Positions 4,192 through 41,442 of a stretch of DNA of 41,442 nucleotides are shown in pieces. The position numbers and the translations under genes are program-made. The DNA comes from Clostridiales bacterium (lineage in GTDB: Bacteria > Bacillota > Clostridia > Caldicoprobacterales > DTU083). The stretch's first letter is position 1; each line of letters starts with the position of its first letter. The notes under the pieces are model-generated. The model was not told where the DNA came from, did not search any database, and saw only the letters and a list, made by a program, of their open reading frames with translations. The stretch is from positions 1 to 41,442 of the forward strand of contig JAAZEK010000113.1 of assembly GCA_012512335.1 (NCBI GenBank). The letters are read 5' to 3'.

Positions 4192-5115
4192 ATGGATTTT
4201 AATAAAGCTTATAATGAAAAGCTTACATACATAAATCACAGCCTCGAAAACCTGCTGAAGGATAGAGACAGCCATCCTGCTGTTCTGAGTGCCATGGAAT
4301 ACAGTCTATTAGCAGGTGGGAAACGATTACGTCCGGTATTGTTACTTTCTGCATATGAACTAGCATACCTGCAGGATAACAGCCAGAAGATTGAGATAAC
4401 TAAATCAGAGTTGGATTTCATCCTGCCTATGGCATGTGCTATAGAGATGATTCATAATTATTCTCTCATTCATGACGATCTTCCTGCTATGGATAATGAT
4501 GATTACAGAAGGGGCAAGCTCACCAATCATAAGGTATTTGGAGAAGCCACAGCAATTCTTGCAGGTGATGGACTATTGAATCTGGCTTATGAAGTTATGC
4601 TAGAAAACATCCCGGATTCTCCGCAAATGATTAACAATTATGTCAAGGCAATGTCAGAAATTGCCTATTCTGCTGGTATATCTGGAATGATAGGTGGACA
4701 GATTGCTGATATGGAAAATCAGGGCGAAGCTAATGAAGAGGAAATGTTAAAATATATACATACTCATAAAACGGAAGCTTTGATTACCGCTTCTTTAAAA
4801 GCAGGGGTTTTAGCTTATAATAATGAACCAGAGGTATTAAATGGTGTAATAGCCTACGGTAAAGCTCTTGGACTTGCCTTTCAGATTACAGATGATATAT
4901 TGGACTTAACTGGGGAGTTTTCTCAGTTAGGAAAGGCTACTGGCCAAGATGAAAAAATGGGCAAGCAAACTTACCCTGCTAGATATGGTTTAGAAAAGTC
5001 CAAGGTCCTAGCTCGTGAATACATTGATGAATCAATTTCATGTTTAGAGCCTTTTGGTACAAAATCAGAATTTTTAAAATTTCTTTCCTTGTCTATATTG
5101 GACAGGAAACGTTGA
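4192..5115 (+). CDS. ispA: Polyprenyl (farnesyl/geranylgeranyl) diphosphate synthase
   Basis: Two aspartate-rich motifs: IHDDLPAMDNDDYRRG and FQITDDILD. Confidence 0.9.
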   Translation: MDFNKAYNEKLTYINHSLENLLKDRDSHPAVLSAMEYSLLAGGKRLRPVLLLSAYELAYLQDNSQKIEITKSELDFILPMACAIEMIHNYSLIHDDLPAMDNDDYRRGKLTNHKVFGEATAILAGDGLLNLAYEVMLENIPDSPQMINNYVKAMSEIAYSAGISGMIGGQIADMENQGEANEEEMLKYIHTHKTEALITASLKAGVLAYNNEPEVLNGVIAYGKALGLAFQITDDILDLTGEFSQLGKATGQDEKMGKQTYPARYGLEKSKVLAREYIDESISCLEPFGTKSEFLKFLSLSILDRKR

Positions 5116-5128
5116 GGGAGGAATCCTG

Positions 5129-5566
5129 TTGTCAGTAGTCACGGAAATTGCACAGAACCGAATCTTATGGAATAGTATACTAGCCTGGTTTATAGCCCAG
5201 GTATTTAAGGTGTTTTTAACTCTCATTCTTGATAAGCGCTGGGATTTTGCTCGTTTTGTTGGCTCAGGAGGAATGCCTAGCTCGCACTCAGCTATTATGA
5301 CCTGCATGGCAACTTCTATAGGTATGCAGGAAGGATTTCATTCACCCATATTTGCCCTGTCAGTAGCTAGTACCCTAGTAGTTATGTACGATGCTGCAGG
5401 CGTACGAAGAGCAGCTGGAAAACAAGCAATTGTTTTGAATGAAATAGTTAGGGAGCTGCAATCCAAGCACACGATAACAGAAGGAAAACTGAAGGAATTA
5501 TTAGGACACACTCCTATAGAAGTAATTGCAGGTGCAATCTTGGGAATTCTAGTAGCTGTGCTTTAA
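5129..5566 (+). CDS. Divergent PAP2-family membrane protein (DUF212, acid phosphatase/vanadium haloperoxidase-related)
   Basis: Family motifs GGMPSSHSA and MYDAAGVRR. TTG start preceded by GAGGGAGG. Multi-pass membrane profile. Confidence 0.75.
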   Translation: MSVVTEIAQNRILWNSILAWFIAQVFKVFLTLILDKRWDFARFVGSGGMPSSHSAIMTCMATSIGMQEGFHSPIFALSVASTLVVMYDAAGVRRAAGKQAIVLNEIVRELQSKHTITEGKLKELLGHTPIEVIAGAILGILVAVL

Positions 5567-14376: not shown

Positions 14377-14425
14377 TAGCTTCGTTTTTAATATATAAAA
14401 TCATTTACGAAGCTATTTCTTTTTG
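14377..14425 (+). terminator. Rho-independent terminator after spo0A
   Basis: A 9-bp stem TAGCTTCGT/ACGAAGCTA with an AT-rich 21-nt loop, followed by TTTCTTTTT. Confidence 0.6.
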
Positions 14426-14490: not shown

Positions 14491-15609
14491 ATGATTCGCG
14501 GCAATGCTAAAAAAGATAAAAAAACCAAGAATTTAATAAATCGTCTTGGGCCATCTGATATTGCCATCATAGATCACAAGGATTTGGATGAAGTTGCCGC
14601 AATTCATCTAGTTGAACATAAAATTAAAGCTGTTATCAATTGCAATTGTTCTATCAGTGGAAGCTATCCAAATCAAGGTCCTAAAATATTAGCTGAGGCT
14701 GGAGTGTCACTATATGATAATGTCGGAATAGATTTCTTTATGTTAGTTGAAGAAAATGACCTAATAGAAATACATAATAACACTATATTTGTCAACCAAC
14801 AAGCAATTTGCAGTGCAAGAGAACTGAGCGAGGAGGAAATAAAAAAAAAGATGGAGCAAGCATCAGAAAATATACGTGATGTGCTTCATGATTTTATAGA
14901 TAACACTTTAGACTATGCTGGAAGAGAGAAAGATTTAATACTTTCACCGATTGATATGCCTAAGCTTACTGTAAATATGAATGGAAGACATGTACTGGTG
15001 GTTATTAGAGGTAAAAACTATAAAGAAGACTTAAAGGCCATTCGCTCATATATTGAAGAAATAAATCCCATCATGATTGGAGTTGATGGTGGTGCAGATG
15101 CCTTGTTGGAATTTGGATATGTACCAGATATTATAATCGGAGATATGGACAGCGTCAGCGATCATGCCTTGAGAAAATGCACAGAAATTATTGTCCATGC
15201 CTATCCCGATGGACGAGCTCCAGGTTTAAAGCGAATTCGAAAATTGGTGCTTAATTCATCTATCTTTCCTTACCCAGGAACAAGTGAAGATGTAGCCCTG
15301 ATACTTGCATATGAAAATAAAGCGGAATTAATTGTTGCTGTAGGCAGTCATACTAATATGATAGATTTTTTAGAAAAGGGAAGACCAGGAATGGCAAGCA
15401 CCTTTTTAGTAAGAATGAAGGTTGGTTATAAGGTTATTGACGCAAAAGGTGTAAGTGAGCTTTACCGTAACAAATTAAAGCCCTCTTATTTAGCAGCTAT
15501 GTTCTTATCTGCACTTTTTCCTATCGGAATGATAGCCAAAATGTCCCCCATGATCCAGGAGTGGTATCACTTGATTACTTTGAGATTAAAAATATTAATA
15601 GGGTTGTAG
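14491..15609 (+). CDS. steA: SteA-like protein (putative cytokinetic ring protein with a thiamine-pyrophosphokinase-like domain and C-terminal membrane anchor)
   Basis: An N-terminal region KKTKNLINRLGPSDIAIIDHKDLDEVAAIHLVEHKIKAVINCNCSISGSYPNQGP, typical of SteA-family proteins. A TPK-like IGDMDS motif. A hydrophobic C-terminus. Confidence 0.65.
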   Translation: MIRGNAKKDKKTKNLINRLGPSDIAIIDHKDLDEVAAIHLVEHKIKAVINCNCSISGSYPNQGPKILAEAGVSLYDNVGIDFFMLVEENDLIEIHNNTIFVNQQAICSARELSEEEIKKKMEQASENIRDVLHDFIDNTLDYAGREKDLILSPIDMPKLTVNMNGRHVLVVIRGKNYKEDLKAIRSYIEEINPIMIGVDGGADALLEFGYVPDIIIGDMDSVSDHALRKCTEIIVHAYPDGRAPGLKRIRKLVLNSSIFPYPGTSEDVALILAYENKAELIVAVGSHTNMIDFLEKGRPGMASTFLVRMKVGYKVIDAKGVSELYRNKLKPSYLAAMFLSALFPIGMIAKMSPMIQEWYHLITLRLKILIGL

Positions 15610-15618
15610 GTGAGCTGT

Positions 15619-16509
15619 ATGATCAATATTAAATATTATGTATTTCTAATGGTAGGTATTTTTCTTTCTATGGGATTGGGAATGATGATTGGAATTACTT
15701 TGGAGAATCATAATATTATAGAAAATCAGCAGACTCAATTGATTCACCAAATTGAAGATCGCTTTGTAAACCTTCAAACTGAAGCAACACAATTAAAAAT
15801 GGAACTCACTAGTGTTAATGATCAAAGAGAACAATTGCATGAATTATCCTCCCTTATGTTTGAGGAAATTATTCAAAATAAGCTATCTAGTGTTCACGTA
15901 GGAGTAATCACATTTTCTCAGCAGAGCTCCATGGATGATATGCTGGATTTCTTACGATTTACAGGTGCATCGGTGGAATCAGCCCTTAGCTTGATACCTA
16001 ATACTCACATTGATAGTGAAAAAACAGTACATGCAATTCAACAGGCTGATGAGTTTATATCTACAATGATACAGGAGTTGGTATATAACATGACCTATGG
16101 TGAGTTGACGCCGCTAATTGAAGAAGCAGAAGGCCTTTTCATAAATTCTTACATTCGACAGTATTCATTTCCTGTAGATGCTATTATTCTATTAGGTCAA
16201 GGTTCTTCTACTTTAACACATGACAAAATTCTAATAGAAAAAGCGAAAGAAGCAGGAATTATAGTAGTTGCTGTTGAGTCTGGGCAAGTAGAAACTAGCA
16301 ATATGTCTACCTATAAAACTTTGGGGATTTCAACGGTAGACCATGTTGAGTCAATATATGGAAGACTAGCTTTAGCATCAGTGTTATCTGGCCATGTTGG
16401 GAATTTCGGGTTCGGAGAGGACGCTTTGGATCTGCTACCAAGCCCTCTGTTCTTTGTATATGATTCTATGGAACCGAATGAATCGGTTAGTGAAGGTGGC
16501 ATTCAATGA
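15619..16509 (+). CDS. MctB/'copper transporter'-family membrane-anchored protein (SteB-like)
   Basis: The N-terminus MINIKYYVFLMVGIFLSMGLGMMIG matches the family-typical Mxx(F/L)RYH plus TM start, followed by a coiled-coil and a soluble domain. The ORF track starts at GTG 15610, immediately after the steA stop. Confidence 0.6.
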   Translation: MINIKYYVFLMVGIFLSMGLGMMIGITLENHNIIENQQTQLIHQIEDRFVNLQTEATQLKMELTSVNDQREQLHELSSLMFEEIIQNKLSSVHVGVITFSQQSSMDDMLDFLRFTGASVESALSLIPNTHIDSEKTVHAIQQADEFISTMIQELVYNMTYGELTPLIEEAEGLFINSYIRQYSFPVDAIILLGQGSSTLTHDKILIEKAKEAGIIVVAVESGQVETSNMSTYKTLGISTVDHVESIYGRLALASVLSGHVGNFGFGEDALDLLPSPLFFVYDSMEPNESVSEGGIQ

Positions 16510-17204
16510 TTAACAAAAATTCTAAAGTGGGGATTATCATTCCTGCATACAATGAAGAAGATAAAATTAAGAATACCATAGAGTCTATAAAGCATCTTCC
16601 TTGGATTGAACGTATTCTTGTAGTTGATGACGGTTCAGATGATAACACTGCTAATTTTGCTTCTGAAGCAGGCGCAGACGTTCTTTCTCTTCATAGAAAC
16701 AGGGGGAAGGCATATGCAATGAAAACTGGTTATTTTAATTCAAATAGTGATATTCTTGTTTTTCTAGATGCTGATATAGTAGATGGTGCTGCTCAAATAA
16801 GTAAATTAGTAGACCCTATTTGGAATGGGGAAGCAGGAGCTGTTATCGCTCATTTTCCTATGACAGCTGGAGGTGGAGGATTCGGCTTGGTGAAGGGCTT
16901 AGCTAAAAAGGGTCTTAATATATTAACTGGTCAAAAGCTAACCAGTGTGCTATCTGGTCAAAGGGCTTTCCTTCGCACTGAATTATCTCCAGATTTTTTT
17001 GACTATAGAGGTTTTGGAATAGAATTTGGCATGACTGTAGATATGTTAAATAATGGTATAAAAATAAAAGAAGTAGATGTTAATATGAGACATCGTTTGA
17101 CTGGCAAAGACTGGGCTGGTTTTCGGCATCGATTTCGGCAGTTTTGTGATATATTTATTGTTTTATCTCGTAAATTAATAAAAAGAGCTATTCATAAAAG
17201 CTAG
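16506..17204 (+). CDS. Family 2 glycosyltransferase
   Basis: The GT-A signature IIIPAYNEE, then VVDDGSDDNT, and the DxD motif FLDAD. It overlaps the upstream gene by ATGA. Confidence 0.8.
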   Translation: MINKNSKVGIIIPAYNEEDKIKNTIESIKHLPWIERILVVDDGSDDNTANFASEAGADVLSLHRNRGKAYAMKTGYFNSNSDILVFLDADIVDGAAQISKLVDPIWNGEAGAVIAHFPMTAGGGGFGLVKGLAKKGLNILTGQKLTSVLSGQRAFLRTELSPDFFDYRGFGIEFGMTVDMLNNGIKIKEVDVNMRHRLTGKDWAGFRHRFRQFCDIFIVLSRKLIKRAIHKS

Positions 17205-17239
17205 ATGAGCAGCACTCAGCCTAAGGAGTAGGATAAAAC

Positions 17240-18079
17240 TTGAATCATTATTGGACTATAATATTTCTATTTTTGTCATCAAGCATAGCTGTTATAATTT
17301 TTTTGATTATAAAGAATAGATTGTTATCATTTATTATGAGAAAAAATCTGTTTTCAATTAATTATTCAGGTAGACAGGTAGTCAATTGTGCTGGATTATT
17401 GATCTTCTTGCCAATATTCCTAGTGTCTTTGCTGGTTTTTTTGATACAACCAAACTTATCTCAGCTAATATTCGTTCTAATGATACCTCTACTTACATTT
17501 ACAGGATTATTTGATGATATACTTGGTGATTCTTCTACTAAAGGCTTGTTAGGCCATGCTTCTGCTCTGCGTAAAGGTGAATTTTCCACTGGTTTTCTGA
17601 AGGCCTTATTAGCTGGCGTACTGGGTTTACTTCTTGCTTGGGCCAATTACAAAAATTTACTCATTATGATAATAGATATTTTTTTATTTTCCCTTTCAGT
17701 AAATACAATAAACTTATTAGATTTGCGCCCTAGTAGAGCAATAAAAGGATTTGGCTTATTGTTGATAATAATAGCTACTATAGCGCATTTTATAAAGCTG
17801 CATTTTATTCTTCCTACTATAATTGTACTGCTACTATACATAAGAGGTGAACTAGATGAAGTCTATATGCTAGGGGATACTGGGGCTAACTTGTTAGGTG
17901 GTATTCTAGGGTTTTATGGAGTTATGGTCTTGCATCCAATTGCAAAAGGAATTCTTTTGATACTACTATTCTCAATGCATCTTCTATCAGAATTTGTTTC
18001 TATTTCTAAATTAATTGAGCGAACACCATGGTTGTATAGACTGGATATGCTAGGTAGAGAGAGGAAAAGGAGTTATTGA
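17240..18079 (+). CDS. Polytopic membrane protein, divergent MraY/WecA-like (GT4) polyprenyl-phosphate sugar-phosphate transferase
   Basis: About 8-9 hydrophobic segments. A cytoplasmic-loop DD motif (GLFDDILGD), then NTINLLDLRP, then LGDTGANLLG. TTG start 11 nt after AAGGAG. Confidence 0.55.
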   Translation: MNHYWTIIFLFLSSSIAVIIFLIIKNRLLSFIMRKNLFSINYSGRQVVNCAGLLIFLPIFLVSLLVFLIQPNLSQLIFVLMIPLLTFTGLFDDILGDSSTKGLLGHASALRKGEFSTGFLKALLAGVLGLLLAWANYKNLLIMIIDIFLFSLSVNTINLLDLRPSRAIKGFGLLLIIIATIAHFIKLHFILPTIIVLLLYIRGELDEVYMLGDTGANLLGGILGFYGVMVLHPIAKGILLILLFSMHLLSEFVSISKLIERTPWLYRLDMLGRERKRSY

Positions 18080-18080
18080 A

Positions 18081-19175
18081 ATGTTAGAACTTAGAATGGC
18101 TAAGGTTACTAAAGTCATCAGTAATAATGGTCAAACAACAGAACTTATTCTTGATATTGATCATCCCATAAAGAAAGCAGTTAATTATAATCTTGTTACT
18201 GGAAATATATCAGTAGGGGATTACTTGTATCTTAATACAACTGCCGGATCCTTGGCATTGGGAACCGGTGGATATCATTTTGTTATGGCAAATGCTTCAA
18301 ATCAACATCATGATATGACCCAAGGTGGACATGGTATGAAACTTCGATATACTCCATTTCAAGTAAAGGTACCTTTTATTGAACAAGAATTAACTGATAA
18401 AAAAGTAGAAATCTATCAACTGCCTCTAGATTTGAAAGGAAGTATAATCTGCTTTGGAGAACTACATAGCATGATACCACCCTTATGTGCATACTTCCGT
18501 TATCACAGCTTAGATAAGCTGCGAATTGGTTATATCATGACAGACCACGCAGCTCTTCCCATATCTTTTAGTAAGAACATTGCTTTATTGAAAGAAAAAA
18601 AACTATTGGATACTACAATCACCATAGGAAATGCCTTTGGAGGTGATTATGAATGTGTTAATATATATACAGGATTACAAACAGCAGCACTGGTTGAAAA
18701 CTGTGATATTATCCTGGTTTCAATGGGACCCGGTATCACGGGTACTGGAAGCAGTTATGGGTTTTCAGGATTGGATTTAGGCTTTTACATCAATCTTGCA
18801 TATGGCTTAGGAGGGCAATGCTACCTAGTACCAAGAATTAGCTTTGCTGATAAGAGGGAAAGGCACTACGGCATAAGTCACCATACATTGACGATAATGA
18901 GGGATATCATCCAATCATCCATTCCTCTGATATTACCTATTCTTCAAAAGTCTCGTAATCAAATAATGATTAAGCAATTAAAAGAAAAGCAAATCTCTAA
19001 CAGATATCATATTTGTTTTACAGATGGGGGAGGAATTAAAAAAGCTATGGAACATTTTCAACTTTCTGTCAGCTCTATGGGTAGAGATATTGAAGAAGAT
19101 CCAGCCTTTTTCTTTGGAATCGGTGCTACTGCAAAGAAATTATTGTCTGTTTTTTCTATAAAGGACAGGTCATAA
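18081..19175 (+). CDS. Conserved hypothetical protein, probably DUF3866 family
   Basis: A 364-aa soluble protein. The family assignment comes from memory of N-terminal conservation (AKVTKV...GDYLYLNTTAGSLALGTGGYHFV). It starts 1 nt after the previous stop. Confidence 0.45.
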   Translation: MLELRMAKVTKVISNNGQTTELILDIDHPIKKAVNYNLVTGNISVGDYLYLNTTAGSLALGTGGYHFVMANASNQHHDMTQGGHGMKLRYTPFQVKVPFIEQELTDKKVEIYQLPLDLKGSIICFGELHSMIPPLCAYFRYHSLDKLRIGYIMTDHAALPISFSKNIALLKEKKLLDTTITIGNAFGGDYECVNIYTGLQTAALVENCDIILVSMGPGITGTGSSYGFSGLDLGFYINLAYGLGGQCYLVPRISFADKRERHYGISHHTLTIMRDIIQSSIPLILPILQKSRNQIMIKQLKEKQISNRYHICFTDGGGIKKAMEHFQLSVSSMGRDIEEDPAFFFGIGATAKKLLSVFSIKDRS

Positions 19176-19198
19176 AATAAGCTTGTCTAACATAGTTA
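19170..19198 (+). promoter_or_regulatory. Candidate sigma-E-type promoter for spoIIM
   Basis: TCATAAA (19170-76), a 14-nt spacer, then CATAGTTA (19191-98). This is compared with the remembered sigma-E consensus TCATATT-14-CATACAnT. The -35 overlaps the stop codon of the preceding gene. Confidence 0.3.
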
Positions 19199-19231
19199 TC
19201 AGTATAACGGATTTTAAGGGGGGCGGGCTTT

Positions 19232-24334: not shown

Positions 24335-24976
24335 ATGTTTCGCCAACCTATTGAAATACTGCTCAGTCTACCTGCTGTGTTTTTGGCTATATCTTTTCAT
24401 GAATTCGCTCATGCTTTCACGGCAGATAAACTTGGCGATGATACACCAAGAAAACAAGGGCGCTTAACTCTAGCTCCCTTGGCCCATGTAGATTGGACAG
24501 GCCTAATCCTATTTGCTTTATTTGGTTATGGATGGGCAAAACCTGTGCAAGTAAACTCTTCTAATTTTAAGAATAGGAAACTAGGAGATATACTTGTATC
24601 TTTATCCGGACCTGTAGCTAATTTCTTAGTCGCAATACTAAGCCTTTTAGTATATGTCACTTTAATGGCAGTTAACTCAGCTACTCCTGTAATGGATACT
24701 ATCCTAGCAGTGGTAAATTATTCTATTTATTTGAACATTATTTTTGGCTTGCTTAATTTAATCCCAATTCCACCACTAGACGGGTATCGTATTTTGAAAT
24801 CTCTCTTTTTTCGATCATTTACCAGACTTTTTATGGCATATGAAAAGGTAGGTATTTTCATTTTATTTGCTTTTTTATTATTTGGTCTGTTTGATTTGGC
24901 TGTCAGCCGACCTGCACTATCCATATACCAATTTTTATTGACTTCAGGCCAAAGCATACTAGAATTAATAAAGTAG
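24335..24976 (+). CDS. Site-2 protease family (M50) membrane metalloprotease
   Basis: HExxH within a TM segment (FHEFAHAF) and NLIPIPPLDG. Confidence 0.85.
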   Translation: MFRQPIEILLSLPAVFLAISFHEFAHAFTADKLGDDTPRKQGRLTLAPLAHVDWTGLILFALFGYGWAKPVQVNSSNFKNRKLGDILVSLSGPVANFLVAILSLLVYVTLMAVNSATPVMDTILAVVNYSIYLNIIFGLLNLIPIPPLDGYRILKSLFFRSFTRLFMAYEKVGIFILFAFLLFGLFDLAVSRPALSIYQFLLTSGQSILELIK

Positions 24977-39321: not shown

Positions 39322-40386
39322 ATGCAACAAATAAAGTCATTTAACATAAATCAAAGCAAACTAAATATTATCAAGCTTAGAAAGGTTTTAAGGGATCTTC
39401 CACCCTTTTGCAAGGAGTATTTTCGCGGAATTGAGCCAAATACTTCCATTCTAACTCGGATTAACTATGGATATGATTTACGCCTATTTTTCAGATTCCT
39501 TACGAAGGAAGTTGGAGAATTTAATGGAAAAAAGCCTCAAGACCTTAAAATAGACGATTTAAAAATCATTGAAGCAGTTCATCTAGAAATGTTTCTTGAG
39601 TATATCTCCCTATATAATAAGAAGAAAAATGGCGTAAGTACAGAGCAGACGAATCATGAGTCTGGCAAAGCCAGAAAGCTTTCGTCTATTCGATCCTGCT
39701 TTTCTCATTTTTACAAAAAAGGATATTTAGATAGAAATGTTACTGAATTAGTGGATATTCCAAGGATACATGAAAAACCGATAATAAGGTTGGATGTTGA
39801 TGAAGTTGCCAGGCTTTTAGATACCATAGAAAATGGAGAAGGACTAACAAAAACTCAGAAAAGATATCATAAATACACTAGGCAACGTGATCTTACCTTG
39901 ATAACCTTGTTTTTAGGAACTGGAATTAGAATAAGTGAGTGTGTTGGATTAAATATCTCAGACTTTGACTTTAATGCCAATAGTTTTAAGGTAACACGTA
40001 AAGGTGGAAATCAAGTTTTACTTTACTTTGGTGAAGAAATTCGCCAAGCATTGGACGACTACCTAGTAGAAAGAAAACAGATGCAAACACTTCCTGGGCA
40101 TGAGGATGCGCTTTTCATATCCATGCAGAATAAAAGGTTGAGTAATCGAGCTATACAAAACCTTGTAAAAAAGTACTCCAATATCATAAGTCCTTTAAAG
40201 AATATTTCGCCTCATAAGCTTCGCAGTACTTATGGCACCACCCTTTATCAAGAAACTGGTGATATTTATCTGGTAGCGGACGTATTAGGCCATAAAGATG
40301 TAAACACTACTAGAAAACATTATGCTGCCATAAGCGACGATAAGAGACGCATGGCAGCACGAGTAGTTAAACTTAGAGATGATTAA
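39322..40386 (+). CDS. Tyrosine-type site-specific recombinase (XerC/D/S-like), second Xer-like gene in the window
   Basis: Catalytic motifs RDLTLITLFLGTGIRISE (R), SPHKLRSTYGT (HxxR) and LGHKDVNTTRKHY (H, Y). The N-terminal SAM-like domain is LPPFCKEYFRG...YGYDLRLFFRFL. Confidence 0.85.
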   Translation: MQQIKSFNINQSKLNIIKLRKVLRDLPPFCKEYFRGIEPNTSILTRINYGYDLRLFFRFLTKEVGEFNGKKPQDLKIDDLKIIEAVHLEMFLEYISLYNKKKNGVSTEQTNHESGKARKLSSIRSCFSHFYKKGYLDRNVTELVDIPRIHEKPIIRLDVDEVARLLDTIENGEGLTKTQKRYHKYTRQRDLTLITLFLGTGIRISECVGLNISDFDFNANSFKVTRKGGNQVLLYFGEEIRQALDDYLVERKQMQTLPGHEDALFISMQNKRLSNRAIQNLVKKYSNIISPLKNISPHKLRSTYGTTLYQETGDIYLVADVLGHKDVNTTRKHYAAISDDKRRMAARVVKLRDD

Positions 40387-40411
40387 TAAAATAATATCTA
40401 GTTGCTCATCA

Positions 40412-40780
40412 TCAGTCTATTATTCCTAAAGCTGAAGCCTCATTAGGATGACTGTTTTCGTAGATTGGAACCTCAAGTATCTGACCTTCTATAATATTAG
40501 CTGTTTCAAGCATATTCCACTCATGGATTTCGTTAATATAATCGCGAATGTCTCTTCCTTTGGGTAAGGATTCTCTTGCAATGCCCCAAAGTGTGTCGCC
40601 TTCGGATACGCTCCAGCTTAGATAGTACTCTGGAATAGCCTGGGCATTACCTTTAAGCAAAAAGATTGATAGTGTGGCGAACAAAAAAGTTAAGACAACT
40701 ACAATGAATATGGTTAGACGTAACCTTGACTTGATGGTTATAGACCTTCTTACTATAGTTTGACTATTTTCATTTATCAC
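40412..40780 (-). CDS. LysM-domain membrane protein, YneA-like SOS cell-division inhibitor candidate
   Basis: One TM segment (LTIFIVVVLTFLFATLSIFLL) plus a C-terminal LysM domain (SVSEGDTLWGIARE...GQILEVP). The gene is divergent from lexA. The ORF-track start (40843) lies inside the promoter. GAGGAGG (40895-40889 on the minus strand) sits 8 nt before the GTG at 40780, giving a 122-aa protein. Confidence 0.75.
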   Translation of the reverse strand: MINENSQTIVRRSITIKSRLRLTIFIVVVLTFLFATLSIFLLKGNAQAIPEYYLSWSVSEGDTLWGIARESLPKGRDIRDYINEIHEWNMLETANIIEGQILEVPIYENSHPNEASALGIID

Positions 40781-40814
40781 ATTAATGACCTCCTCGAACG
40801 TATGTTCTGAATTC

Positions 40815-40843
40815 ATTATACAGGAACGTTTGTTCCGTGTCAA
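40815..40843 (-). promoter_or_regulatory. Consensus sigma-A promoter with an embedded LexA box for the LysM gene
   Basis: On the minus strand: TTGACA (40843-40838), the 17-nt spacer CGGAACAAACGTTCCTG, then TATAAT (40820-40815). The spacer contains GAAC-N4-GTTC (40824-40835). Confidence 0.8.
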
Positions 40844-40870
40844 CGGTTTTTTAAATAATTTAAAATAATC

Positions 40871-40884
40871 CGAACATTTGTTTG
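40871..40884 (+). promoter_or_regulatory. LexA box overlapping the -35 of the lexA promoter (autoregulation)
   Basis: CGAACATTTGTTTG overlaps TTGATT (40882-87). A 17-nt spacer follows, then an extended -10 TGcTACAAT (40902-10). Confidence 0.7.
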
Positions 40885-40976
40885 ATTTTTGCCTCTTTTT
40901 GTGCTACAATACCATTAATTAGTTACATATAAGTAAGTAATAAGTAAAAAAAATTATAGATAATGAGGTGTAAACA

Positions 40977-41442
40977 ATGGCAAAAGCCCTCAGTGACAAA
41001 CAGAAAAAAATCTTGGAATTCCTTAAAGATGAAATTCGGACAAAAGGCTATCCGCCCTCCGTACGAGAAATATGCGATGCAGTAGGTTTAAAATCTACCT
41101 CCACTGTACACGGTTATCTCGAGCGTCTCGAGAAAAAAGGCTTCATCCGTCGAGATGCATCTAAACCAAGGGCAATCGAAATTTTGGATGACAATACATA
41201 TGTTTCAAACAACGAACTGGTTAATGTTCCTATAGTTGGCCGTGTGACTGCTGGACAACCAATTTTGGCAGTTGAAAACATTGAAGATACCTTTCCCATT
41301 CCAGTTCAATATCTTCACAACAGCGATGTTTTTATGCTCCATGTAAGAGGTGAAAGTATGGTTGAAGCTGGTATTCTCGATGGAGATATGGTTATCGTAC
41401 AAAAGAAACCTACCGCCTCCAATGGTGATATGGTCGTAGCTC
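40977..41442 (+). CDS. lexA: LexA repressor (5' partial, runs off the window end, absent from the ORF track)
   Basis: Manual translation from the ATG at 40977 (RBS GAGGTG): [70 protein letters not shown]...[20 protein letters not shown]...[20 protein letters not shown]. It has the wHTH, the AG cleavage site and the GESM serine nucleophile. The frame stays open to position 41442. Confidence 0.93.

Follow-up and report, generated by a model that had tools for sequence, protein, structure and literature searches.

A spo0A-linked steA-steB operon of a Clostridiales bacterium with GT2 and short PNPT-fold genes: a candidate module for a polyprenyl-linked envelope glycan

In Mycobacterium tuberculosis the hydrolase RipA is positioned by a heterotetramer of SteA and SteB that spans the membrane (Carloni et al., mBio 2026; PMC12977500). 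SteA has a pocket similar to the phosphonucleotide sites in thiamine pyrophosphokinase (TPK) and CstII, and CgSteA is stabilised by guanosine diphosphate (GDP) and uridine diphosphate (UDP); septal localisation and GDP/UDP binding of SteA are known only for Corynebacterium and Mycobacterium (PMC12977500). Counterparts of this pair open a set of five genes in a Clostridiales bacterium (GenBank assembly GCA_012512335.1, contig JAAZEK010000113.1; "the window" is the whole stretch of 41,442 nucleotides that was analysed), which occupies positions 14491-19175 of the + strand between spo0A and spoIIM and continues with genes for a GT2 glycosyltransferase, a short protein (gene 4) of the polyprenyl-phosphate N-acetylhexosamine-1-phosphate transferase (PNPT) fold and a DUF3866 protein. 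Compared with the cell-separation system of the Mycobacteriales (PLoS Genet 2019, PMC6705760; PMC12977500), SteA is orthologous, the architecture of SteB is the same and the two genes are likewise adjacent and located 3' of recN; unlike that pair, the clostridial one is embedded with GT2, short PNPT and DUF3866 genes and the RipA-binding loop is apparently not conserved. The steAB pair has been described from across the Actinobacteria and from a subset of the Clostridia, in which it lies immediately 3' of spo0A (PMC12977500), and the statement of a first-pass annotation of this DNA that SteA and SteB are known only from Corynebacterineae is thus outdated.

The same holds for its statement that the module lacked any functional study in Firmicutes. 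A CRISPR interference (CRISPRi) and transposon-sequencing study in Clostridioides difficile (J Bacteriol 2025; PMC12548448) listed cdr20291_1053-1057 as essential with no pathway assigned, annotated as a pyrophosphokinase (373 residues), an exported protein (291), a GT2 (230), a glycosyl transferase (274) and a DUF3866 protein (355). The cluster is required for vegetative growth, and knock-down produced chains of short, swollen cells; the phenotype was the same as that of knock-downs in the PS-II polymer and in PBP2/RodA/Mre, and unlike the filaments of division genes (PMC12548448). The open reading frames (ORFs) of the C. difficile locus retrieved here (L014) encode 373, 291, 230, 274 and 355 residues, the sizes given in Table 2 of that paper. 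They comprise the same five genes in the same order, strand and place after spo0A (recN(-spoIVB-spo0A)), with 26-54% identity to the window proteins, and differ from the window, which derives from an uncultured relative of the Caldicoprobacterales, in a NUDIX gene between DUF3866 and spoIIM. Judged by synteny and identity, the window operon is the orthologue of cdr20291_1053-1057. Corynebacterium survives deletion of steAB, whereas C. difficile, the only organism for which essentiality of the five-gene cluster is known, cannot do without the orthologous genes. The cluster has therefore been described, but not understood, in C. difficile, and the SteAB family has been characterised; our literature searches found no paper linking SteAB to a GT2 or a PNPT, and nothing relevant on the C. 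difficile 630 locus tags, on SteA/SteB in difficile or on SteA/SteB with glycosyltransferases in Streptomyces.

A third group of described systems is relevant to the enzymes of the module. In MraY-MurG, TagO-TagA, WecA-WbbL and Alg7-Alg13/14 a polytopic PNPT-fold enzyme carrying DD/NxxNxxD/GDxG motifs works with a soluble glycosyltransferase. The window PNPT has these features and its gene likewise adjoins that of a soluble glycosyltransferase, to which it is sometimes fused in homologues. It differs in being about 280 residues long instead of about 360, in failing PF00953, in lacking HHH/loop E and in having DLRPGRAIK, not DGxDGLA; moreover, its partner is a GT2, not the GT28 or GT26 of the known pairs. 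We propose, with about an even chance of being right, that the operon is a growth-essential envelope module in which the PNPT and the GT2 start a polyprenyl-linked glycan whose synthesis is coupled to SteAB.

Four of the five proteins could be assigned by domain searches in agreement with the first-pass annotation. SteA (14491-15609, +, 372 residues) scores 510.4 bits with the NCBIfam equivalog NF040608 (putative cytokinetic ring protein; cut-off 150) over residues 2-369 of 372, matches PF12555 (SteA-like_C; 48.6 bits) and shows a PF04263 match over residues 193-232. It aligns with the solved SteA core (9hmy, E = 8e-65, residues 4-326; 9hmz, E = 1e-46), and of 75 orthologues at least 95% carry the two TPK-like motifs, GVDGGxDA and GDMDSVSD. 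A transmembrane scan placed a single C-terminal membrane helix at residues 331-349. As predicted from these features, SteA is a cytoplasmic protein with a nucleotide-binding TPK-like domain and a C-terminal membrane anchor.

The steB gene (MctB family; 15610-16509, +) encodes 299 residues from a GTG start; ATG 15619, preceded by the Shine-Dalgarno sequence GGTGAG, is equally possible, and both candidate codons are kept in close homologues. The protein matches PF11382 (MctB) in two stretches with 73.4 bits (gathering score 25.6) and no NCBIfam model. A profile built from 15 clostridial sequences only recovered the SteB of C. glutamicum (Cg1604; 8au6, E = 4e-11) and the MctB/SteB of M. tuberculosis (9m9z, E = 6e-10; 9hle, E = 3.5e-9), with alignments that extend over the coiled coil as well as the C-terminal core. 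The predicted layout is an N-terminal membrane helix (transmembrane scan), a coiled coil and an extracytoplasmic beta/alpha core. The window holds no gene for a coiled-coil NlpC/P60 partner of SteB.

Gene 4 (17240-18079, +, 279 residues, TTG start) is the least secure of the first-pass assignments. It was called MraY-like there, with a PF00953 match expected; PF00953 gave no match even when E was relaxed to 10, and searches of Pfam, NCBIfam and the sequences of the PDB were all empty; the superfamily membership itself was borne out by profile comparison and predicted fold. Its homologues have about 275 residues, and distant ones give weak PF00953 matches (18-25 bits, cut-off 27). A profile of 34 sequences matched Escherichia coli MraY (8g01) with E = 6.4e-5 and with the catalytic motifs aligned: DD, NxxNLxD and GDTG of gene 4 are the counterparts of DD, NxxNxxD and GD(T/V)G, and D92, D93, N155, N158, D161 and D213 are invariant in these 34 homologues from Bacillota and Actinobacteria. 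The AlphaFold model (predicted local distance difference test, pLDDT, 93; predicted template modelling score, pTM, 0.91) retrieved from the PDB with Foldseek 33 top matches that are all MraY or human DPAGT1 (probability 1.00, TM-scores 0.55-0.64), the next match having a probability of 0.05. The alignment spans MraY residues 27-295 of 360, and the final ~65 residues of MraY, which we take to be the HHH/loop E region, have no counterpart; a family-specific motif, AEFxSxS...LDxLGR, stands in their place. Profile and model together show gene 4 to be a short and divergent member of the MraY/WecA/GPT (PNPT) superfamily with its catalytic aspartates intact.

In an exhaustive profile search the number of representatives (50% identity clusters) of the short PNPT, at least 1818 at E <= 1e-30, rose to no more than 3788 at E <= 1e-3, and such a distribution indicates a discrete subfamily, not the tail of canonical MraY/WecA. 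One representative, P0400 (1005 residues), is a short PNPT fused to a region of about 730 residues with extracytoplasmic and polytopic parts, resembling the 745-residue protein of the actinobacterial locus L088 described below. This uncharacterised MraY/WecA subfamily, defined here, is missed by current Pfam and NCBIfam models.

The GT2 (16506-17204, +, 232 residues) matches PF00535 with 85.1 bits (gathering score 23.3) and has a single domain with a GT-A fold signature and no membrane segment (transmembrane scan); the signature motifs DDGS (D42-G-S) and DxD (D88/D90) are conserved in 65 orthologues. Its scores fall under every NCBIfam equivalog cut-off, the best being the AglJ-like TIGR04182 (101.6 bits, cut-off 325), and the NCBIfam resemblance is greatest to polyprenyl-/dolichyl-phosphate hexose synthases (AglJ, ArnC, PpgS, Dol-P hexose transferase). 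The closest solved relatives are the mycobacterial glucosyl-3-phosphoglycerate synthases (GpgS; E = 4e-11 over the full catalytic domain), and the GpgS equivalog NF010496 gives 68.5 bits against 262. With GpgS and with the polyprenyl-phosphate hexose synthases AglJ, DPMS, GtrB and ArnC the window protein shares the GT-A fold, the DxD motif and a similar length of catalytic domain; these are its best sequence matches, yet the scores are far under the family cut-offs, it is devoid of the C-terminal membrane helices of GtrB, DPMS and ArnC, and the GpgS residues that we take to bind the acceptor have no identical counterparts.

Two observations link this glycosyltransferase to gene 4 and both to SteA. 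In a search of representative sequences a natural fusion of the two enzymes was found, P0478 (527 residues), in which the GT2 part is 37% identical to the window GT2 over its full length (E = 1e-46) and the PNPT part 32% identical to gene 4 (E = 1e-30), suggesting that these two proteins at least act together. The second is provided by two loci that have no steB. In that of Anaeromonas frigoriresistens (L061:7530-8495) SteA has 321 residues and ends right after the cytoplasmic core, with the membrane helix lost, and in L083 (5200-7008) the C-terminal domain of SteA is retained; in both, GT2, PNPT and DUF3866 still follow steA. The persistence of SteA-GT2-PNPT without SteB suggests that SteA is tied to the enzymes at least as tightly as to SteB.

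The arrangement is also widely conserved. When genomes were scanned with the DUF3866 profile, at least 576 species genomes proved to contain relatives, and among the best 80 loci, which were kept, all five genes are collinear in 68 of the 69 with enough upstream sequence, far beyond chance. The median estimated gaps are 8.5, 7.5, -5 and 4 nucleotides, and steA, steB, GT2 and PNPT are joined by overlaps or near-zero gaps in 65-67 of the 68. In the window the five ORFs are co-directional and tightly packed: the steA stop is followed directly by the steB start (15609/15610), steB and GT2 share an ATGA overlap (16506-16509), 35 nucleotides with an AAGGAG before 17240 separate GT2 from gene 4, and gene 4 and DUF3866 meet in TGA-a-ATG (18077-18083), with one base between. 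All these ORFs and junctions, with gaps or overlaps of 0-35 nucleotides, are as first described, and the proposal of a single transcription unit gained support from the comparison: the five have the look of a single operon whose envelope genes are conserved together. The closest of the 80 loci, from a metagenome-assembled genome (MAG) of the Caldicoprobacterales (L001), is 49-74% identical to the window proteins and has the window's order, recN-spoIVB-spo0A-[five genes]-spoIIM-xerD-deoB.

Distant homologues of gene 4 were looked up in their genomic contexts (L081, L082, L084, L085, L088). In L084 (47% GC, without sporulation genes in the locus) the order is dxs-tlyA-nadK-recN-steA-steB-GT2-PNPT-pyrG-M20 peptidase-DUF3866-NUDIX-xerD-deoB; an Acidimicrobiales MAG (L085) has recN-steA-steB-GT2-PNPT-pyrG-NUDIX, the GT2 lying within a 970-residue fusion with a polytopic domain; and a member of the Solirubrobacteraceae (L081) has recN-steA-steB-PNPT-pyrG-M20-DUF3866-NUDIX-xerD-deoB, without GT2. 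In a further actinobacterial variant (L088:1-7861 and L082:1-8858) steA and steB are followed by murJ, genes for two polytopic proteins of about 740 residues and the short PNPT, the genes overlapping by 4 nucleotides in L088. The large proteins have an N-terminal transmembrane segment, some 350 extracytoplasmic residues with weak alkaline-phosphatase/sulfatase-like matches and then 9-10 transmembrane segments, and beside the variant operon the opposite strand carries a GT-C-like (PMT_2) gene. The presence of MurJ, GT-C-like and polytopic proteins in this variant is consistent with the flipping of a lipid-linked intermediate from one side of the membrane to the other. The reading of the gene content as that of a lipid-linked glycan, offered by the first-pass annotation, agrees with these genes as well as with the PNPT fold of gene 4 and the GT2-PNPT fusion. 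As judged by gene order, steA-(steB)-GT2-PNPT is an old core common to Bacillota and Actinobacteria, newly seen here.

DUF3866 (18081-19175, +, 364 residues) belongs to this core less closely than the window suggests. The protein matches PF12982 with 381.4 bits (gathering score 25) over profile positions 1-317 of 318 and is cytoplasmic; its predicted model (pLDDT 83.5, pTM 0.83) has an N-terminal beta-barrel and a Rossmann-like alpha/beta domain. Neither its sequence nor a profile retrieved anything from the PDB, and no convincing structural match was found. A SIMIBI NTPase fold (Ffh/FtsY, MeaB, HypB, NifH) was considered and not accepted, the Foldseek matches being weak and partial (TM-scores 0.3-0.4), and no Walker-type P-loop was noticed among the conserved motifs. 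The gene lies directly after an M20/M28 peptidase gene in the actinobacterium L081 (10570-13523), in L084 (9494-12241) and in Thermincola (L073:8820-11080), and directly before a NUDIX gene in C. difficile (L014:10001-11606), L081, L084 and L086 (7873-9687). It is split from the core by pyrG in L081 and L084, and insertions between the PNPT gene and DUF3866 are found in L069, L070, L073 and L078. A homologue search from the actinobacterial DUF3866 returned only close Solirubrobacteraceae relatives and no new contexts. From these gene orders, DUF3866 is ancestrally apart from the steA-(steB)-GT2-PNPT core and travels with the M20 peptidase and NUDIX genes, which hints at a small functional neighbourhood of its own.

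In the mechanism that we propose the short PNPT would transfer a sugar-1-phosphate from a nucleotide sugar to undecaprenyl phosphate on the cytoplasmic face of the membrane, and the translationally coupled GT2 would add the next sugar, by analogy with MraY-MurG, TagO-TagA, WecA-WbbL and Alg7-Alg13/14. These two steps would yield a polyprenyl-diphosphate-linked disaccharide, the primer for an envelope polymer made elsewhere. SteA, anchored beside the two enzymes, could bind the nucleotide sugar or the released nucleotide (UDP/GDP) in its TPK-like pocket and, through the membrane helix bundle that it forms with SteB, may control how active a SteB-bound partner is in remodelling the wall outside the cytoplasm. 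DUF3866 could be an accessory cytoplasmic enzyme or an adaptor.

Several points weigh against this proposal. The GT2 acceptor is not readable from the sequence. The donor of the PNPT may not be a UDP-N-acetylhexosamine, since the C-terminal region of MraY is missing and DLRPGRAIK replaces the DGLDGLA that contains the DGxDG uridine-binding motif. The RipA-binding alpha3-alpha4 loop (residues 139-153 of MtSteB) apparently falls, judged by position, within the most variable, indel-rich region of clostridial SteB, and no partner of SteB can be named because this is the least conserved part. Mycobacteriales have SteAB without GT2 or PNPT (PMC12977500) and L081 lacks the GT2, indicating that SteAB can work without these enzymes. 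In C. difficile both CRISPRi and transposon insertions are polar, and essentiality can therefore be assigned only to the cluster as a whole. Finally, the tlyA-nadK-recN...xerD-deoB block is an ancient synteny that also holds the unrelated pyrG and NUDIX genes, which makes adjacency weaker evidence than usual.

This last point is the basis of the alternative that survives best, although we consider it rather unlikely: that the five genes are syntenic neighbours with separate jobs, in which the role of SteAB is confined to regulating a peptidoglycan hydrolase, as in Mycobacteriales, some secondary wall polymer is primed independently by GT2 and PNPT, and DUF3866 has a metabolic role with the M20 peptidase and NUDIX proteins, co-transcription reflecting an ancient housekeeping "uber-operon" and not a shared pathway. 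The conservation of tlyA-nadK-recN-...-pyrG-NUDIX-xerD-deoB from Actinobacteria to Clostridia, with its mixture of unrelated functions, speaks for it, as do the separation of DUF3866 by pyrG in the company of the M20 peptidase (L081, L084, L073) and NUDIX (L014, L081, L084, L086), the four loci with insertions after the PNPT gene, and SteAB standing alone in Mycobacteriales (PMC12977500). Such a view is harder to reconcile with the overlaps or near-zero gaps among the four core genes in nearly all collinear loci, with the retention of GT2-PNPT beside SteA after the loss of SteB, with the fusion of GT2 and PNPT, by which at least those two act together, and with the single phenotype of the whole C. 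difficile cluster (PMC12548448), a comparison that is confounded by polarity.

A second alternative grants a shared pathway and denies the PNPT-fold protein its catalysis: it would be a scaffold, a polyprenyl-phosphate-binding subunit that presents the carrier lipid to a GT2 making a polyprenyl-monophosphate sugar, like DPM1-DPM2/3 or Ppm1-Ppm2. The absence of a membrane segment in a GT2 that most resembles polyprenyl-/dolichyl-phosphate hexose synthases, the lack of the uridine-binding C-terminal region of MraY, the loss of the second Asp of DGxDG in the PNPT and the occurrence of fusions are all compatible with it. The invariance of DD, NxxNxxD and GDTG across Bacillota and Actinobacteria would not be expected in a pure scaffold, and we regard the idea as improbable.

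A pathway for glycerate-containing lipoteichoic acid (LTA) was also considered and set aside as very improbable. Here a GpgS-like GT2 would glycosylate 3-phosphoglycerate to give the HexNAc-(1-2)-glycerate unit (HexNAc, N-acetylhexosamine) of C. difficile-type PS-III, and the PNPT would provide the lipid-linked start. The kinship of the GT2 with mycobacterial GpgS (E = 4e-11; NF010496, 68 bits), the alpha-N-acetylglucosaminyl-(1-2)-glyceric acid (alpha-GlcNAc-(1-2)-glyceric acid) of PS-III (PMC13558421, PMC10642750) and the presence of the module in C. difficile and Peptostreptococcus are in line with it. All scores are, however, far under the 262 bits that the equivalog demands, the taxonomic range of the module, which includes Actinobacteria, extends well past the taxa known for this LTA, and the PS-III backbone is a 6-P-6 phosphodiester, not the glycosyl-1-phosphate of a PNPT. 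Besides, the G-R-V-T stretch of GpgS, presumably the site that binds the acceptor 3-phosphoglycerate, aligns to G-L-V-K in the window GT2.

The reading as a sporulation-associated module making a polymer for the asymmetric septum, engulfment or the forespore, favoured by spoIVB and spo0A upstream, by spoIIM with its sigma-E-like promoter downstream and by the speculation of Carloni et al. on a sporulation role (PMC12977500), is highly improbable and, as a sporulation-specific system, largely refuted by distribution and essentiality: recN abuts steA directly, without spo0A or spoIVB, in seven loci, four of them of Peptostreptococcus, the core occurs without sporulation genes in L084 and in actinobacterial loci, spoIIM has a conserved promoter motif of its own and in C. 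difficile vegetative growth depends on the cluster (PMC12548448). The sporulation or forespore link drawn by the first-pass annotation thus gives way to ancestral synteny: from the gene orders compared, the spo0A-spoIIM placement is the inherited recN...xerD synteny shared with Actinobacteria, into which sporulation genes were inserted, and it does not imply a functional link with sporulation since the module is kept without spo genes.

The proposed boundaries of the operon, a spo0A terminator and a sigma-E-like spoIIM promoter, proved plausible. Upstream, a terminator-like hairpin 3' of spo0A (14377..14424, +) has a 9-bp stem and a 21-nucleotide loop followed by the T-run TTTCTTTTT; the hairpin itself (14377-14415) folds as RNA with a free energy of -10.7 kcal/mol (z = -3.0), and the length of its loop explains why it was missed by a generic terminator scan. 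Downstream, the motif GTCATAAAA-N14-CATAGTTAT (19168..19199, +) overlaps the stop codon of DUF3866, and its form GTyATAAA-N13/14-CATAnnnATCA is conserved 5' of spoIIM in all 11 related loci compared (L001-L005, L007-L010, L058 and L087). It resembles what we take to be the sigma-E consensus and looks like a phylogenetically footprinted promoter of the sigma-E type. The interval between DUF3866 and spoIIM contains no terminator. No promoter is named for the operon, as a generic scan gave 32 sigma-70-like sites against 32.6 in shuffled sequence, i.e., no excess.

The wider neighbourhood in the window is the classic core block nusB-folD-xseA-ispA-dxs-tlyA-nadK-argR-recN. Within it, between the polyprenyl synthase (ispA-like) gene and dxs, lies a DUF212 gene (4192-5566; divergent PAP2 phosphatase family), which may be connected to carrier-lipid or isoprenoid phosphate metabolism. 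Directly 5' of scpA-scpB a short gene resembling a fragment of an M50-family peptidase is found (24335-24976; ~213-228 residues in the three loci); similar genes precede scpA-scpB in L085 (11602-12288) and, directly so, in L087 (14002-14646), and this gene, present in Clostridia and in the Acidimicrobiales MAG, is a further piece of deep synteny. Toward the end of the window (39322-41442) come a second tyrosine recombinase gene (phage-integrase family, 354 residues) and, after it, an ORF on the minus strand, and beyond ~39 kb the GC skew levels off; this end may be a mobile-element edge or an integration site.

New in this work are the old steA-(steB)-GT2-PNPT core, the GT2-PNPT fusion, the company of SteA with GT2-PNPT in two loci devoid of SteB and the ancestral separation of DUF3866. 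In M. tuberculosis SteAB is being studied as a target, and the C. difficile cluster, being among the few essential gene sets without an assigned pathway, may be a target for narrow-spectrum antibiotics. The ancestral linkage of SteA to PNPT and GT2, the fusion and the retention of these genes without SteB lead to the testable idea that SteA senses a nucleotide sugar or the UDP/GDP by-product. In a wider reading, which is possible and is offered tentatively, SteA would be the nucleotide-(sugar-)binding hub of an ancient lipid-linked glycan pathway of Bacillota and Actinobacteria, built on a short PNPT and a GT2, and would couple, via SteB, the synthesis of a growth-essential envelope glycolipid or polymer to wall remodelling; the SteAB-RipA system of mycobacteria would in that case have arisen by reduction, with loss of the enzymes, and the short PNPT would represent a new functional class with a different donor.

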